From Escherichia phage vB_EcoP-101114UKE3: a DNA stretch of 64,000 bases. Under the pieces are notes generated by a model. That model saw nothing but the letters and a program-made list of their open reading frames with translations, searched no databases and was not told where the DNA came from. Shown one piece after another: positions 2,119 through 57,844 of the stretch. The DNA lies in sequence record NC_070982.1. One strand, given 5' to 3'. The translations under genes were made by a program, and so were the position numbers. The stretch's first letter is position 1. Each line of letters begins with the position of its first letter.

Positions 2119-3660
2119 ATGTCGTTAGATAAAGAAATCTATGAAGCTCTAACTGGAGACAAGTTGAGTATAGAGGAAAAGAAAGCTTTGCTCAATATGT
2201 TAAAAGAAAGGGACCAGTGGAGAAAATATAACAAGATGTTGGCTTTTAAAGCTTACGACTTTCAGAAGAAATTCTATGCAGCAGGGTTGAAGCATCGCTT
2301 TCGATTCCTGTGCGCAGCTAACCGTGTTGGTAAATCTTACAGCGAGGCATACGAGTTTGCTTGTCATGTCACAGGTCGCTATCCAACTTGGTGGACAGGT
2401 TACAGATTTAATCGACCTATATTGGCTTGGGCAGTAGGGATTACAGGGGACTCTACAAGAAAGGTATTGCAAAAGGAGTTGTTTGGAACACCTATCGGAA
2501 AGGATATGAATCTAATAGGAACAGGTGTTATTCCTCGTGATGCTATCGTATTGGACACGATAGAACGAGATGGGAACAAATTACAGATTGTACAAATTAA
2601 GCATCAAAACGCGAGAGGCGAGTTTGACGGTTTAAGTACATTAGAGTTCCGTTCTACCCAACAGGGTGAACATACATTGATGGGTGCTACAGTTGATTAT
2701 ATTTGGCTGGACGAAGAAGATCCATATGAATCTATGGCAATCTTCTCTCAGTGCGTAACACGTACACTTACAACTAAAGGTTTAGTTACTATTACAGCTA
2801 CACCAGAGAACGGTTTAACAGAGCTGGTGGATAAGTTTATGAAAGGTGAAGGAGATGAGAACACAGGTTCTCTGTATTTCCAGAATGCTTCTTGGTGGGA
2901 TGCTCATGTAGATTTAGGTGGACATATCACTGACCAAGATATTAAAGACATGACTGAAGGTATTCCAACATGGCAGTTAGAGATGCGTTCAAAAGGTATG
3001 CCGTTGCTTGGTTCTGGTTTGATTTATGATGTATCAGATGACATGATTAAGTGTGATCCCTTTGAGATACCTGATACGTGGAAACGTGTTTGTGCTATTG
3101 ATATTGGTATCGATCACCCGACAGCCGCTGTTTGGACAGCATATGATGCTAACACTGATACGATTTATGTTTATGACTGCTATAAAGAAGGTGGGTTTAC
3201 TCCGGTGTACCATGCACCAGCTATTAATGGTCGTGGTCAGTGGATTCCAGTTATTCTTCCTCACGATGCCGATAATATTGAGAAGGGAAGTGGTTCGTCT
3301 GTTGCTCAATTCTATAAGAATGCAGGGGTTAATGTACAGAGTGAGACCTTCTACAACAAGATTGGAATGGATGGTAAGAAGAACTTCTTTGTAGAGCCGG
3401 GAATTACTGATATTCGTGAACGTATGATGTCAGGTCGTTTTAAAATCTTTAACATTGCTTCGTGTGCTAAACTCTTTGAAGAGAAAGCTCGCTATCACCG
3501 TAAGGTTGGCAAGATTGTTAAGGAACATGATGACTTGATGGATGCTATGCGATATTCAGCTTGTTCTGTAACACATCGTGGACGTAGTAAGCATGATGCT
3601 AGTTATGGTAGTTCATCGCTTTATCAAGACAATATTAACAGATGGAATCAGACCTACTAA
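2119..3660 (+). CDS. Terminase large subunit
   Basis: ATG at 2119 with GGAGG RBS (the ORF-track start at 2107 is TTG); Walker A-like RVGKS and Walker B-like IWLDEED; typical size and position. Confidence 0.8.
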   Translation: MSLDKEIYEALTGDKLSIEEKKALLNMLKERDQWRKYNKMLAFKAYDFQKKFYAAGLKHRFRFLCAANRVGKSYSEAYEFACHVTGRYPTWWTGYRFNRPILAWAVGITGDSTRKVLQKELFGTPIGKDMNLIGTGVIPRDAIVLDTIERDGNKLQIVQIKHQNARGEFDGLSTLEFRSTQQGEHTLMGATVDYIWLDEEDPYESMAIFSQCVTRTLTTKGLVTITATPENGLTELVDKFMKGEGDENTGSLYFQNASWWDAHVDLGGHITDQDIKDMTEGIPTWQLEMRSKGMPLLGSGLIYDVSDDMIKCDPFEIPDTWKRVCAIDIGIDHPTAAVWTAYDANTDTIYVYDCYKEGGFTPVYHAPAINGRGQWIPVILPHDADNIEKGSGSSVAQFYKNAGVNVQSETFYNKIGMDGKKNFFVEPGITDIRERMMSGRFKIFNIASCAKLFEEKARYHRKVGKIVKEHDDLMDAMRYSACSVTHRGRSKHDASYGSSSLYQDNINRWNQTY

Positions 3661-8924: not shown

Positions 8925-8950
8925 CCCTGCCTTCGGGCGGGGTTTTTTCG
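8925..8950 (+). terminator. Rho-independent terminator with UUCG loop
   Basis: CCCTGCC-TTCG-GGCGGGG followed by TTTTTT. Confidence 0.6.
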
Positions 8951-8976
8951 TTTTAAGACCTATACAAGCCAGTGTG

Positions 8977-8985
8977 TAATGTATA
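8977..8985 (+). promoter_or_regulatory. Candidate phage promoter element TAATGTATA
   Basis: Exact TAATGTATA 34 nt upstream of the ATG at 9019, just after the capsid terminator. Confidence 0.35.
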
Positions 8986-9018
8986 TTCTTTGTCTACATA
9001 CAACTAGGAGGACAATCT

Positions 9019-41539: not shown

Positions 41540-41574
41540 CATAACTCCTTAATATATCAGTGTACACTAAGGAG

Positions 41575-41583
41575 TATACATTA
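41575..41583 (-). promoter_or_regulatory. Candidate promoter element TAATGTATA upstream of the basic-protein gene
   Basis: Minus strand reads CATAATGTATACTCC about 35 nt upstream of the ATG; overlaps an 8-bp inverted repeat ACTCCTTA / TAAGGAGT that includes the RBS. Confidence 0.35.
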
Positions 41584-41586
41584 TGT

Positions 41587-54185: not shown

Positions 54186-54416
54186 TTAGATACCTTTTAG
54201 TTTAAGAATTTCGTTACGACAGGATTGAATTTTAGCTTCGATTGCCCAATACTCAGCGAACATTTCGTCTTCTTGGGCATCGCTTGGAGAGTCGATTAAG
54301 TTAAAAGCAAACGGATACAGCTTTCGCTGCTCCGTTACCAGTTGTTGAAGTCGGAGTTGTTGATACTCCAGCATTGTCAGGTGAGGCTTAGCTCCCTTGC
54401 TTGACATGAGGCTCAA
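54186..54416 (-). CDS. Small hypothetical protein (about 76 aa), possible TTG start
   Basis: TTG at 54416 with AAGGGG RBS; the first ATG is at 54407. Confidence 0.35.
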   Translation of the reverse strand: MSLMSSKGAKPHLTMLEYQQLRLQQLVTEQRKLYPFAFNLIDSPSDAQEDEMFAEYWAIEAKIQSCRNEILKLKGI

Positions 54417-54621
54417 CTTTAATCCCCTTCATTTTAACATAGTCAGCCAACACGTTATTGATAACGGTTGGAAAAGGGATTTCTACTGGAGAGTCAACCA
54501 GCTTCCCAATACCTTCTTGCATCCACTTCTGGATTGCTCGGAGGTTATCACATCCTGTGCTTGTCATCGGAATACGGCGGGTAGTTACCACGTTATCCAA
54601 CATCAGTTTACGAACTTCCAT
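54388..54621 (-). CDS. Small hypothetical protein (77 aa)
   Basis: RBS AAGAGG. Confidence 0.4.
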   Translation of the reverse strand: MEVRKLMLDNVVTTRRIPMTSTGCDNLRAIQKWMQEGIGKLVDSPVEIPFPTVINNVLADYVKMKGIKVEPHVKQGS

Positions 54622-54632
54622 AACTATACCTC

Positions 54633-56666
54633 TTAGTGTTTACCTTTACAGTAATCTGAATTACAGATCACCCTGTTTTCTTTGTTCAGTGAGCAAGTTT
54701 CTGCATCACGCCACGGAATTTGTTTATAACAGACTGCACAAAACCCAATTGAAGTCCAGAGGGCTTTTGTAAACTCAGCTGTTCGTTGTCCATCGTAACT
54801 GACAACTGTTTTTCGGAGAGAGGTTGACTTTTCTGGAAATGTCTCCGCTTTCTCAGCGGGTACCTCCTTTGGGGCATTCTTTGGACCATAAACAGAGATG
54901 GCATAAGTATCACCACCACGTTTTTCCAAATACGAATTAGGAACATCTGCAAGTGTGATGTCCCCTGAACGTTTTGCTGAGCTGACCATTACAATCATAC
55001 GGCTAAGCATACGTTCATCAACACGAACAGCTACTTCAGGACGACGTGGGTTGGTTGTGTCTACTGCTTTAGTCCAAATATAACCTTCAGATAGAGTAAC
55101 ATTCTTTACTTTATCTTTGATTTCTTTGGAGCAGATATAACAAACGTCTTCACCACGAAGTTTACTCATTTCGTTGTCAAACTCGAAATCAGTCTTGACT
55201 TCACCACAGATAGCACATACACCCAAAGGCACATCTTCTTCCTCTTCAGAGGTTTTAGATAACGCTTCGAAGCATTCTGGATGCCAGTATGCCTGATAAG
55301 CAAACACAGCCTTACGAGCATCTTTCCAGTCAATGTGCTTATCACAACCACCACAGTCACCATGAGAGTGAGATTCCCAGAACTTACGAGTGACTTCTAC
55401 ACCATTCTTAGTGATGAAGGAGTCCTCTGCATCAAAAGGGATATCATCATCAAAATCAGCAGTAGTGCTTTGAGGCTCCTTATCTGTAGCATCAACAAAC
55501 AGCCCTGAAGTTAGTACGAGGCGAATCATACTGTCCACTTCGGAGATACAAGCAATCGTCCCGCGATATACTACCTTTGGGTTTTCAAGAGCCTTAAGAT
55601 ATTCATCTTTGGCTACGTTGTGAACATCCCCTTCGACATACTCTTGAGCTTTATCATCGTAGATGTAACCAACCATCTTACCACGATCTGTGTTGTTATA
55701 AGCATGGAACTCGTGAGGAATAATATCCACACGACCATCACGACGATAAGGAAGACCGCGATCGGCAGCCAGTTTGTTCTGGTCTTCAATCGCTTTACGA
55801 CGACGAATGTCTCCGCTTGTCACGCCGGGCTTGTCGTCTTTGTTTCCGTAAATGTCGCTTGTGCTGCTGCTTGATTTGTTTGTCTGTTGGTTCTGATAAA
55901 GAGAGGAGTTCGAGTAATAGCCGCCCCAGCGACTCGTTACCGTAAAAACCGGAAGCGTGTGCTCCACCTCTTGAACCAGAGTCATACGACTGTTAGACAC
56001 ATCAAAGATATACTCAGTTCCCACTTTACATTCGAAGTGGTCATTGATATGGTTCTTATGGGACTTAGAACGCTCTAAAATCCACATAAGCATAGCTTCT
56101 TCAGAAGCTCCAAACCAATCCAAACCACAGCGGGCTAGGTGGAAAGGACGCTCATCATTACGGATAATGTGAAGTGTGTTGTCTTTAGCATCATGCCAAA
56201 TCAAAGTGAATGCACCATCCAGTTTTTGGATAGTCTCTGCTGCTCCAATGGTGTTAATTGAGTGGCAGATGTTTTCACTATCAACTTCGAAACGCTTACT
56301 GTCAGGAAGGAGATCTTGATCTAACAGGGTTCCATTATGAACCAGAGTAATATCCCCGTGAGTAAATGGGTGAGCATTTCGAGCATTGACAGCCCCACGA
56401 GTGGCATGTCGGCTGTGACCAACAATCCACGAAGGAGGAACTACGTAGTTCGTAAGCCCTTTGGTAATATTTGTATATTCTGTCTGGAGCATAAAAGCAT
56501 AAGAAGGAAGAGCTTCTTTATAAGAGAAGACTTGCTTTTCACCTTTACGCTGACCAAACACACCAGTTGAGTGCTGTCCACGGAAAACACCAGCATACAG
56601 AAGTTGGTTGAAAATGTCCAAATCTGCTGAGGTCATGTTGCCGCCAGCTAATACGATACCACAAAT
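54633..56666 (-). CDS. Ntn-hydrolase / class-II glutamine amidotransferase-like protein fused to a CxxC-rich C-terminal region (about 677 aa); predicted AUU start
   Basis: The frame upstream of the first ATG reads stop-K-I-CGIVLAGGNM..., giving the GAT-II N-terminal Cys; ATT at 56664-56666 has AGGTGG 8 nt upstream; RHATRG and NAHPF blocks; at least five C-x2-C pairs in the C-terminal third. Confidence 0.65.
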   Translation of the reverse strand: MCGIVLAGGNMTSADLDIFNQLLYAGVFRGQHSTGVFGQRKGEKQVFSYKEALPSYAFMLQTEYTNITKGLTNYVVPPSWIVGHSRHATRGAVNARNAHPFTHGDITLVHNGTLLDQDLLPDSKRFEVDSENICHSINTIGAAETIQKLDGAFTLIWHDAKDNTLHIIRNDERPFHLARCGLDWFGASEEAMLMWILERSKSHKNHINDHFECKVGTEYIFDVSNSRMTLVQEVEHTLPVFTVTSRWGGYYSNSSLYQNQQTNKSSSSTSDIYGNKDDKPGVTSGDIRRRKAIEDQNKLAADRGLPYRRDGRVDIIPHEFHAYNNTDRGKMVGYIYDDKAQEYVEGDVHNVAKDEYLKALENPKVVYRGTIACISEVDSMIRLVLTSGLFVDATDKEPQSTTADFDDDIPFDAEDSFITKNGVEVTRKFWESHSHGDCGGCDKHIDWKDARKAVFAYQAYWHPECFEALSKTSEEEEDVPLGVCAICGEVKTDFEFDNEMSKLRGEDVCYICSKEIKDKVKNVTLSEGYIWTKAVDTTNPRRPEVAVRVDERMLSRMIVMVSSAKRSGDITLADVPNSYLEKRGGDTYAISVYGPKNAPKEVPAEKAETFPEKSTSLRKTVVSYDGQRTAEFTKALWTSIGFCAVCYKQIPWRDAETCSLNKENRVICNSDYCKGKH

Positions 56667-56743
56667 TTTCTAATCCACCTGAAGGGTAAACCCTTTCATC
56701 TAATTAACCTTTAAATGCGCCCTGTATAAGAGCGCCCGTTGTG

Positions 56744-57844
56744 TTACAGCAGTCGTTCTAATTGCATTTCCAGATGGTCTGGAATATAACCAGTGACGTT
56801 ATCATCACTGCTACCTGATTCACGCATCAATGCAAACATGTGACGAATTTCACGAACCGTTGCGATTCGAGTGCTTTCAATCTGAGGGGTGTAGTAGGTC
56901 ATGATCTCTTCGTAGACACTGTTGGCATTACCGCGCACATATCCCAAGAAACCATAGAAGTCATTCATATCACGTAAGTTGATAAGGACTTCACCATCAG
57001 GGCCAGTCTGTTGCACACGAACACGACCAACCAAAGTTACAGATTGCTCACGACAGAAGAGAATATCACGAGCAAGACGATACCCTTCAGTGAGATCACT
57101 GTCTCTTGGAGTATAGTCTAGGGGTAGATGTTGAATCATAGGAGCGAAGCGCAGCTCATTCAACTTCTCAACATAAGCTTCATTGTCTAAATCTGCATAT
57201 TCAACAGCCAGTTTCTTGAGAACCAAGAAGCGGTTGACCAGATTCAGAAGTTGGCTCTTTTTCCACTTCGGCTCTGAGATACGGAACTCAACAGAACCAA
57301 ATTGAGATAGAGGCAAAAGATTAAGGGAGGTGTATTTATCCCAGCTATTAACAAGAGAGTGGAAGAAAGCTTCCCCGTCTCGGTTGAACGCTGACGAAGC
57401 ATTCATAACTTGTGCTTGAACGACAGCAAAAGCTGGACAGAAGTTGCTACGATAGCGATGGTATCCAGAACATTTGAACATCATCTTTTCATAGAACGTC
57501 CATCCAAGAATAACTTTCTTAAGGATATTACTATCAGCGTCACGCATATCCATATGAACGTGAGTGGAGCAGCGCCAAGTTCCCTCGGCTCCAGAATCCT
57601 GTACTGCTTCACTCAGATTGTTAATAGCACGAAGTAATTCTTCACCGTTGTAAGGTCGTGCACATACTAATTCACAACCATCACGAAGAGAGCCATCTTC
57701 AGTACAAACCCACATATCAGCGTCAATGTCAGTTGTACCTTCGACTTCTAACTCAATACCAACACCACACTGAAAAGCAATACTTGGATGCGGTTCAGAT
57801 AAGCGAGGGTTACGGTATCCAAAAACTTGTGCTACGGTTGTCAT
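56744..57844 (-). CDS. Amidoligase-like (carboxylate-amine ligase, glutamine synthetase-like fold) protein (366 aa)
   Basis: GVGIELEVEG near the N-terminus and a downstream STHVHMD motif; genomic context with GAT-II-like and AIG2-like genes. Confidence 0.45.
   Translation of the reverse strand: MTTVAQVFGYRNPRLSEPHPSIAFQCGVGIELEVEGTTDIDADMWVCTEDGSLRDGCELVCARPYNGEELLRAINNLSEAVQDSGAEGTWRCSTHVHMDMRDADSNILKKVILGWTFYEKMMFKCSGYHRYRSNFCPAFAVVQAQVMNASSAFNRDGEAFFHSLVNSWDKYTSLNLLPLSQFGSVEFRISEPKWKKSQLLNLVNRFLVLKKLAVEYADLDNEAYVEKLNELRFAPMIQHLPLDYTPRDSDLTEGYRLARDILFCREQSVTLVGRVRVQQTGPDGEVLINLRDMNDFYGFLGYVRGNANSVYEEIMTYYTPQIESTRIATVREIRHMFALMRESGSSDDNVTGYIPDHLEMQLERLL

Follow-up and report, generated by a model that had tools for sequence, protein, structure and literature searches.

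An AUU codon as the probable start of a phage class-II glutamine amidotransferase gene, directly before the catalytic cysteine and within an invariant leader

AUU start codons are very rare in Escherichia coli, where infC and pcnB begin with this codon, and the initiator tRNA is able to decode it. In the E. coli class-II glutamine amidotransferases GlmS and PurF the initiator methionine is removed, as is standard when residue 2 is a cysteine, and PurF of Bacillus subtilis is made with an 11-residue propeptide that is processed to expose Cys1. Initiation factor IF3 is reported to discriminate against AUU (PMC9723500), and expression from AUU was 6-8 times lower than that from AUG in a controlled reporter (PMC3592434). 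In the model for the infC junction, about half of the initiation is de novo and the other half is reinitiation (PMC3592434). Here we analyse the glutamine amidotransferase gene in a 64,000-nt stretch of Escherichia phage vB_EcoP-101114UKE3 (NC_070982.1; hereafter the window), which very probably starts at an AUU codon directly before the codon of its catalytic Cys1. The closest described gene is phi32_83 of phage phiEco32, an orthologue with an identical 56-nt leader and the same ATT start, known from annotation only.

The start region comprises the following features.

54633-56666, minus strand: coding sequence of the glutamine amidotransferase, with an ATT start and 677 codons plus stop; orthologue of phiEco32 phi32_83
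56664-56666, minus strand: ATT, the proposed AUU initiation codon, where 67 of 76 viral loci have ATG
56661-56663, minus strand: TGT, codon of the catalytic Cys1 nucleophile; invariant alignment column C1, aligned with residue 1 of GlmS (1xff) and PurF
56675-56680, minus strand: AGGTGG, Shine-Dalgarno-like, with an 8-nt spacer to the ATT
56672-56670, minus strand: TAG, followed by AAA at 56669-56667, directly 5′ of the ATT and in frame
56634-56636, minus strand: first in-frame ATG, annotated as the start in the phage's own record; CTG or CTC in phiEco32-type and KBNP1711-type genomes

The minus strand reads CCCTTC-AGGTGG-ATTAGAAA-ATT-TGT-GGT-ATC-GTA-TTA-GCT-GGC-GGC-AAC-ATG. A sequence-only reading of the window had described a stop-AAA-ATT-Cys frame with no canonical start before the cysteine, a first ATG ten codons past the ATT at 56636, and an AGGTGG Shine-Dalgarno (SD) sequence 8 nt from the ATT (56680-56675). 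All of this is borne out, and no in-frame ATG, GTG or TTG lies between the TAG and the Cys codon in the window sequence. Two marks of an AUU gene are thereby present, namely the lack of a canonical start before the essential Cys1 and an AUU that stands, with an SD, where the orthologues have AUG. At the sequence level the codon before the Cys is the sole start option that keeps the catalytic Cys first, as in class-II amidotransferases.

The same reading had set the SD of the ATT against a poor one at the downstream ATG, a contrast that held only in direction. The predicted anti-SD duplex is indeed stronger at the ATT (-5.9 kcal/mol), but the downstream ATG is not that poor (GGCGG at 4-nt spacing, -4.8 kcal/mol), and the difference is modest. 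The SD of the ATT falls within the top 8.6% of random positions, the median for long open reading frames (ORFs) in the phage being -5.6 kcal/mol, and AGGTGG is predicted to be mostly unpaired (P ~0.6). By itself the SD argument is weak and not decisive.

The identity of the enzyme bears more directly on the start. Pfam recognises GATase_6 in the 677-residue protein (2.7e-14; 53.7 bits, cut-off 27) as well as GATase_7 (25.1 bits, cut-off 25). A family profile built from an alignment of 40 diverse homologues matches PDB chains of E. coli GlmS and PurF, with E-values as low as 8e-18, and places the Cys on residue 1 of PurF and of the mature GlmS glutaminase (chain 1xff, which starts CGIVG). Invariant in the 40 homologues are C1, G2, R28, G29, H83, R85, N110, G111 and D128, and the Arg-Gly, Asn-Gly (oxyanion hole) and Asp columns align with RG, HNG and Asp of GlmS. 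Collectively, these comparisons identify the protein as a class-II glutamine amidotransferase of the PurF type, an N-terminal nucleophile (Ntn) enzyme, and agree with the fold and the Cys nucleophile proposed at the outset.

The phage protein would thus share with E. coli GlmS and PurF the fold family, a Cys1 exposed by methionine removal and the Arg-Gly, Asn-Gly and Asp residues. It differs in that those enzymes have ATG starts and SIS or PRTase synthase domains, neither of which Pfam finds across the 677 residues, and the PDB matches are confined to the glutaminase domain. The protein is therefore a class-II amidotransferase yet, as far as its domains indicate, not GlmS, and the common database name ‘L-glutamine-D-fructose-6-phosphate aminotransferase’ is not supported. 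In place of a synthase domain it has a C-terminal region of ~420 residues with CxxC pairs, and its gene lies in an amidoligase/ATP-grasp cluster. This extra region (54633-55890, minus strand) carries several CxxC pairs and a sub-threshold match to LIM (E = 0.007); the phiEco32-type protein has 677 residues, compared with 350-450 in most homologues.

Next we consider the codons that precede the first ATG. In an alignment of 16 distinct phiEco32-like genomes over 660 nt, variable sites follow a period of three that begins exactly at the Cys codon (+5, +17, +20, +23 and so on). Between genera, codons 1-9 (CGIVLAGGN) show 1-3 synonymous and 0-1 non-synonymous changes, and the ratio of non-synonymous to synonymous divergence (dN/dS) over the first 60 codons is 0.08-0.13 at a synonymous difference (pS) of 0.42-0.67. 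Furthermore, the downstream ATG of the window is missing in most relatives, including the phiEco32 and KBNP1711 types, which have CTG or CTC there, and the ATG at 56636 is probably an internal methionine codon only. Proteomics of phage SU10 detected 9 peptides of the protein, the gene model used there being a shortened one of 63.8 kDa (PMC4281155). Selection on the upstream codons, together with their conservation in the family, therefore indicates that translation begins no later than the Cys codon, and with the TAG two codons before it the ATT alone is left as a start.

The wider family supplies a further line of evidence. We sampled the 120 best protein-database homologues and 80 loci from IMG/VR (of at least 523 relatives there), in 76 of which the match reaches the Cys codon. 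The protein sequence begins MCG in 99 of the 120 homologues. The codon directly before the Cys, codon -1, is ATG in 67 of the 76 viral loci, including the sister lineage L019. The exceptions are ATT in five phiEco32-like genomes and in L045, ATC in L098, TTG in L083, and the locus L051, which has a doubled Cys (ATG-TGC-TGT). Reading upstream added two loci, L062 with ATT and L086 with ATC at codon -1. Eight database proteins with anomalous, extended or shortened N-termini were also checked, and codon -1 was ATT in five, ATC in one and TTG in two. The extensions made by gene callers (MEDSDI/C, MEDNPI/C, MEGRKI/C and MVITL/C) include ‘MED’ forms that are simply the SD sequence GGAGGA read in frame, and genuine propeptides in the family were rejected as an explanation, since codon -1 proved to be ATT, ATC or TTG in all eight models. 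In L012 (phage BUCT695), L045, L062, L117, L119 and L120, no canonical start lies between the in-frame stop and the Cys. Across ~11 non-ATG lineages codon -1 is always a near-cognate start (ATT, ATC or TTG); random sense codons within an extension would give this outcome with a probability of roughly (6/61)^11.

These starts also appear to have arisen repeatedly. Under Fitch parsimony, ~10 changes between Ile-codon starts and others are needed on a neighbour-joining tree built from 82 distinct N-terminal domains, a tree without bootstrap support and a sample enriched by the added anomalies. The nearest relative of each of L012, L020, L098, L115, L117 and L119 is an ATG-start locus. The median SD strength is -9.3 kcal/mol at Ile-codon starts and -6.0 kcal/mol at ATG starts (one-sided Mann-Whitney p = 0.0009, n = 13 vs 57, the lineages being not fully independent), which is the pattern expected of real but weak start codons. 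What is new here is that, on this tree, Ile-codon starts would have arisen about ten times in the family, usually with extra-strong SDs.

Two observations weigh against an AUU start in the window. Its SD is of average strength for genes of this phage (-5.9 kcal/mol), and the out-of-frame TTG (56664-56662) and GTG (56662-60) on the minus strand overlap the ATT-TGT-GG and could compete with the AUU. These lie 10 and 12 nt from the SD; the GTG frame ends after 4 codons, and the TTG frame runs for ~39 codons (estimated by eye). Taken together, the Cys1 alignment, the evolution of the first codons and the identity of codon -1 across the family support the view that the gene very probably starts at the AUU at 56666-56664 and exposes Cys1. 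Initiator fMet-tRNA would decode the AUU, positioned by AGGUGG 8 nt upstream, and deformylase and methionine aminopeptidase would then remove the methionine, so that the alpha-amine of Cys1 becomes free, as the Ntn mechanism requires. A weak AUU may keep expression of the amidotransferase low or context-dependent.

Upstream of the start we found a leader of unusual constancy, with these features.

56659-56714, minus strand: invariant leader block of 56 nt, from TTAAAGG through the upstream ORF, SD, TAG and ATT to TGTGG
56670-56699, minus strand: in-frame upstream ORF (uORF) of 9 codons, ATG AAA GGG TTT ACC CTT CAG GTG GAT TAG (MKGFTLQVD, then stop)
56682-56695, minus strand: small hairpin AAGGG-TTTA-CCCTT inside the uORF, directly 5′ of the SD; ~-5.4 kcal/mol

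The TAG before the ATT is the stop of this uORF, with 3 nt between TAG and ATT and AGGTGG inside the uORF. In the 16 genomes, no site varies from about -50 to +4 of the Cys codon, whereas ~45% of the sites in the flanks do. At least 99% identity to the leader was found in 95 of 97 phage records (100% in all 39 Escherichia and Shigella matches listed), the exceptions being two Aeromonas phages at 91%. Of the blocks in the 64 kb that are shared without change by the window, phiEco32 and KBNP1711, the one at 56659-56714 is joint fourth in length and the longest among those that are mainly non-coding. No match to the leader occurs in 5,426 E. coli genomes, and host mimicry or a prophage origin was rejected on this ground. 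A pattern scan of viral_contigs in which the ATG, TAG and ATT positions were left free returned the five known phiEco32-like genomes only, and a looser scan of JGI metagenomes for the leader pattern returned nothing. As the leader never varies, natural variation cannot separate the roles of its ATG, TAG and ATT.

The same module is present in the Aeromonas phage BUCT695 (Grimontviridae), where 39 of 42 positions are identical and the hairpin is kept despite a loop change, alongside an enzyme with 59% protein and 63% nucleotide identity. ATG-start lineages lie between BUCT695 and the phiEco32 clade in the neighbour-joining tree, so that either extreme constraint with repeated loss or a transfer of the leader would account for the identity. 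The closest canonical relative, L019 (71% identical), has ATTTAAAGG, 8 nt and ATG-TGT, and the window has ATTTAAAGG, 8 nt, ATG, a further 33 nt and then TGT. The ATG of the uORF therefore corresponds to the start codon of L019, and the sequence before it to the ribosome-binding site of L019. By this alignment the 33-nt block (hairpin, SD, TAG, AAA and ATT) was either inserted in frame in one of the two lineages or deleted from the other. L020 (67% identical) is intermediate between them, with AAAGGATATAG-GTG-ACT-AAA-ATT-TGT. A slippery-like heptamer in the uORF, GGGTTTA, is in the wrong phase, and -1 frameshifting was rejected. The invariance of the leader with its uORF, hairpin and infC-like junction is, as a sequence pattern, new; its function is unproven.

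The junction resembles that of thrS-infC, which likewise has an AUU start, an SD and an upstream stop 3 nt before the AUU (UAA GGU AUU, compared with UAG AAA AUU in the phage). It differs in that the upstream frame of the phage is a 9-codon uORF with a hairpin rather than a full gene, and there are no grounds for expecting IF3 autoregulation as such. The geometry is that of reinitiation, with a stop within a few nt of the start and the SD inside the upstream ORF. Under this mechanism, ribosomes that end the uORF would melt the small hairpin and, kept in place by the SD, start again at the AUU, supplementing de novo initiation. The ribosome-binding layout that the uORF shares with L019 is an indirect hint that it may be translated. 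The SDs of the phiEco32-type (-5.9 kcal/mol) and BUCT695 (-5.8 kcal/mol) leaders are average for the family and at the weak end of the Ile-start set, and an average SD in the leaders that bear a uORF fits a uORF module that replaces the strong SD used elsewhere. Several points speak against the reinitiation part: the uORF's own SD is weak (-3.4 kcal/mol), the uORF of BUCT695 is kept but its ATG follows no recognisable SD, a uORF is absent from other lineages with an AUU start, and the AUG of the uORF may lie outside the mRNA. We prefer uORF-coupled reinitiation at the AUU as the reading of this leader, and regard it as possible, if somewhat short of probable.

The conservation of the leader could instead serve another purpose, with the AUU start being real and the leader acting as a promoter with a 5′ stabilising hairpin, as the operator of a phage or host regulator that binds RNA or DNA, or as an RNA processing site. 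Two features 5′ of the leader are relevant to this.

56717-56735, minus strand: terminator-like hairpin, identified from the fold, after the amidoligase stop and before the leader
56744-57844, minus strand: Amidoligase_2 gene, the upstream neighbour (Pfam PF12224)

A new transcript could begin at the leader behind this hairpin, whose stem is compensatory between genera (GGGCGC...GCGC here, GGTGCC...GGCAC in phiEco32 and KBNP1711). The U-tract of the hairpin is poor (AUUUAAAGG), and a terminator feature is annotated under matches to the records 4E8 and WFI101126. A conserved TTTAAATGTAA motif lies just upstream in BUCT695 and its relatives, and invariance at all 56 positions exceeds what a ribosome-binding site usually needs. 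Furthermore, the next two longest invariant blocks with recognisable regulatory motifs both hold the gp36 promoter motif TAATGTATA (PMC4281155 for the motif). The leader itself has neither this motif nor a sigma-70-like site, and a search of the 64 kb for a recurring promoter motif gave no second copy of its 18-mer TTAAAGGTTAATTAGATG at up to 3 mismatches. Rfam 15 gave no relevant match in 56400-56950, glutamine riboswitches included (four sub-threshold hits were at chance level), and the leader is not unusually stable as RNA, folding no better than shuffled sequence (z ~-0.2; range -0.03 to -0.4). A role as promoter, operator or 5′-end stabiliser is a serious alternative to a translational role of the leader, even if we consider it on balance unlikely.

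A second possibility concerns the start itself. Translation could begin at the ATG of the uORF (56699), read through the UAG at low frequency and yield a 12-residue propeptide (MKGFTLQVD-X-KI) that is self-cleaved to expose Cys1. The uORF is in frame with the enzyme behind an ancestral-looking ribosome-binding site, and self-cleaved propeptides do exist in Ntn enzymes, that of B. subtilis PurF being near in length to the 12 residues encoded from the ATG of the uORF to the Ile codon. In L020, a good SD precedes the GTG of the GTG ACT AAA ATT TGT sequence, and a 4-residue extension is possible there. However, a propeptide of this type needs a continuous ORF, the phage frame is broken by the TAG at 56672-56670, and ordinary E. 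coli hosts suppress UAG inefficiently. The constraint also appears to be on nucleotides rather than on a peptide, because the leader shows no synonymous drift in 16 genomes whose pS is 0.42-0.67 and both BUCT695 changes are non-synonymous in the uORF frame. Moreover, an upstream ATG is entirely lacking in other ATT lineages, and every apparent N-terminal extension checked in the family is a gene-calling artefact over an SD and an ATT, ATC or TTG. We judge read-through with a propeptide to be very improbable.

A start at the ATG at 56636, or at later canonical codons, is the annotation in the phage's own record (MZ234015) and in most of the 97 related records, which place it 10 to 113 codons downstream. 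It lies 10 codons downstream in SU7, IME267, ECBP2 and the window's own record, 25 in SGF2, SR02 and O18-011, 44 in KBNP1711, 57 in EP335 and 113 in XT18 and Paul. The protein would then lack Cys1 and be inactive as an amidotransferase, with the upstream codons left as untranslated remnants. A weak SD-like GGCGG does lie 4 nt before the ATG at 56636. This ATG is absent from the phiEco32 and KBNP1711 types, though, and the next canonical start, 25-113 codons on, would remove much of the domain. The synonymous change in codons 1-9, the periodicity from the Cys codon and the family-wide invariance of Cys1-Gly2 all run counter to untranslated remnants. The N-terminal tryptic peptide predicted for a protein that starts at the Cys is CGIVLAGGNMTSADLDIFNQLLYAGVFR. 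A downstream start is, in our view, extremely improbable.

Gene 60-style bypassing from the AUG of the uORF, with take-off at AAA (56696) and landing at AAA (56669), past the hairpin and the UAG, to give MKI-CGIV, is scarcely credible: the matching AAA codons around a 27-nt gap with a hairpin at its beginning, a stop at its end and an SD-like element 5′ of the landing site do give a layout superficially like T4 gene 60, but a dipeptidyl-tRNA cannot supply the nascent-peptide signal that gene 60 bypassing requires, normal decoding would win as no stop follows the take-off codon, the product would still need propeptide removal, and other ATT lineages lack these features. A pseudogene is likewise disfavoured, and a fusion with the amidoligase ORF was rejected, the two being in different frames with a TAA and the hairpin between them.

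The call of an ATT start is itself not new, having been in GenBank since 2008. In both EU330206 (2008) and RefSeq NC_010324, phi32_83 (‘glutamine amidotransferase’) starts at the same ATT, and it is the one ATT among the 128 coding sequences of phiEco32, next to 112 ATG, 13 GTG and 2 TTG. The coding sequence starts at the ATT in LAMP and in the BASEL phages Bas87, Bas89 and Bas93 too, and Bas86, Bas88 and Bas92 appear to carry the same ATT start. The BASEL authors refined their annotations by hand against orthologues of related phages, and their paper is silent on the start codon. We found no experimental mapping or discussion of an ATT/AUU start in phage amidotransferases in the accessible literature. 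Mis-annotated starts matter here, as they strip the catalytic Cys and mislead function prediction, and gene callers give shortened or falsely extended models across the family.

The surroundings of the gene are well conserved. The 2.5 kb around the start match Escherichia phage vB_EcoP-101114BS3 at 100% identity and, at 74-99.9%, ~95 other phiEco32-like podophages, which belong to the Gordonclarkvirinae (Kuravirus, Suseptimavirus and Nieuwekanaalvirus). Position 54500 of the window corresponds to 32953 of the 100%-identical MZ234015 and to ~55495 of IME267, which indicates a circular permutation of the window with respect to MZ234015, its best-matching record. The cluster, which lies in the early region by homology to phiEco32 (PMC4281155), has the order COOH-NH2 ligase, 208-aa protein, Amidoligase_2, glutamine amidotransferase, two small ORFs and RimK-like ATP-grasp, and the synteny from amidoligase through the amidotransferase and the two small ORFs to ATP-grasp is kept in all relatives. 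In Bas89 (L008), an HNH endonuclease gene (2909-3418) lies directly downstream of the amidotransferase, where a 77-aa ORF is found elsewhere (54388-54621 in the window), which suggests a homing-endonuclease insertion in the cluster. In the distant relatives L113, L114 and L116 a class-I amidotransferase/Peptidase_C26 gene, and not an amidoligase gene, lies upstream of the class-II gene, and the make-up of the cluster therefore varies across the family.

Other putative regulatory elements were found along the way. A block of 43 nt at 41543-41585 is identical in three genera and reads CATAATGTATACTCCTTAGTGTACACTGATATATTAAGGAGTT on the minus strand, where an inverted repeat, ACTCCTTA...TAAGGAGT, comes after the gp36-type motif TAATGTATA. 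This block, near the DNA polymerase gene, is a probable middle promoter that has an operator-like palindrome. A second block, of 51 nt at 8950-9000, is also identical in three genera and carries on the plus strand GTAATGTATAT, which matches the published late-promoter motif of phiEco32-like phages. Among relatives of 82-92 kb, TTTAAATGTAA(A/T) lies 15-35 nt before the gene start, at ~2515-2535 in L012 (BUCT695) and at ~1450-1480 in L029, L031, L032 and L033. It resembles AATGTA, the core of the promoter motif of phiEco32, and is a candidate phage-specific promoter before the amidotransferase.

We tentatively propose that this family is a natural hotspot of AUU and AUC starts (~7-10% of lineages, ~10 origins, always before the Cys and usually with a perfect AGGAGGA SD), and that the leader module is a device of translational control in phiEco32-like and some Aeromonas phages. 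If so, the module would act through termination-reinitiation, IF3 sensing or both, so that the glutaminase is made at a low or coupled dose. Two phage families whose enzymes are only 59% identical would in that case share the module either through extreme constraint or because the leader itself was transferred horizontally. The dose of the enzyme may matter, as uncoupled hydrolysis of glutamine could be costly. With recurring AUU starts and compensating SDs in the family, and an invariant infC-like junction in one clade, these genes would offer a natural system for studies of dosage control by weak start codons.

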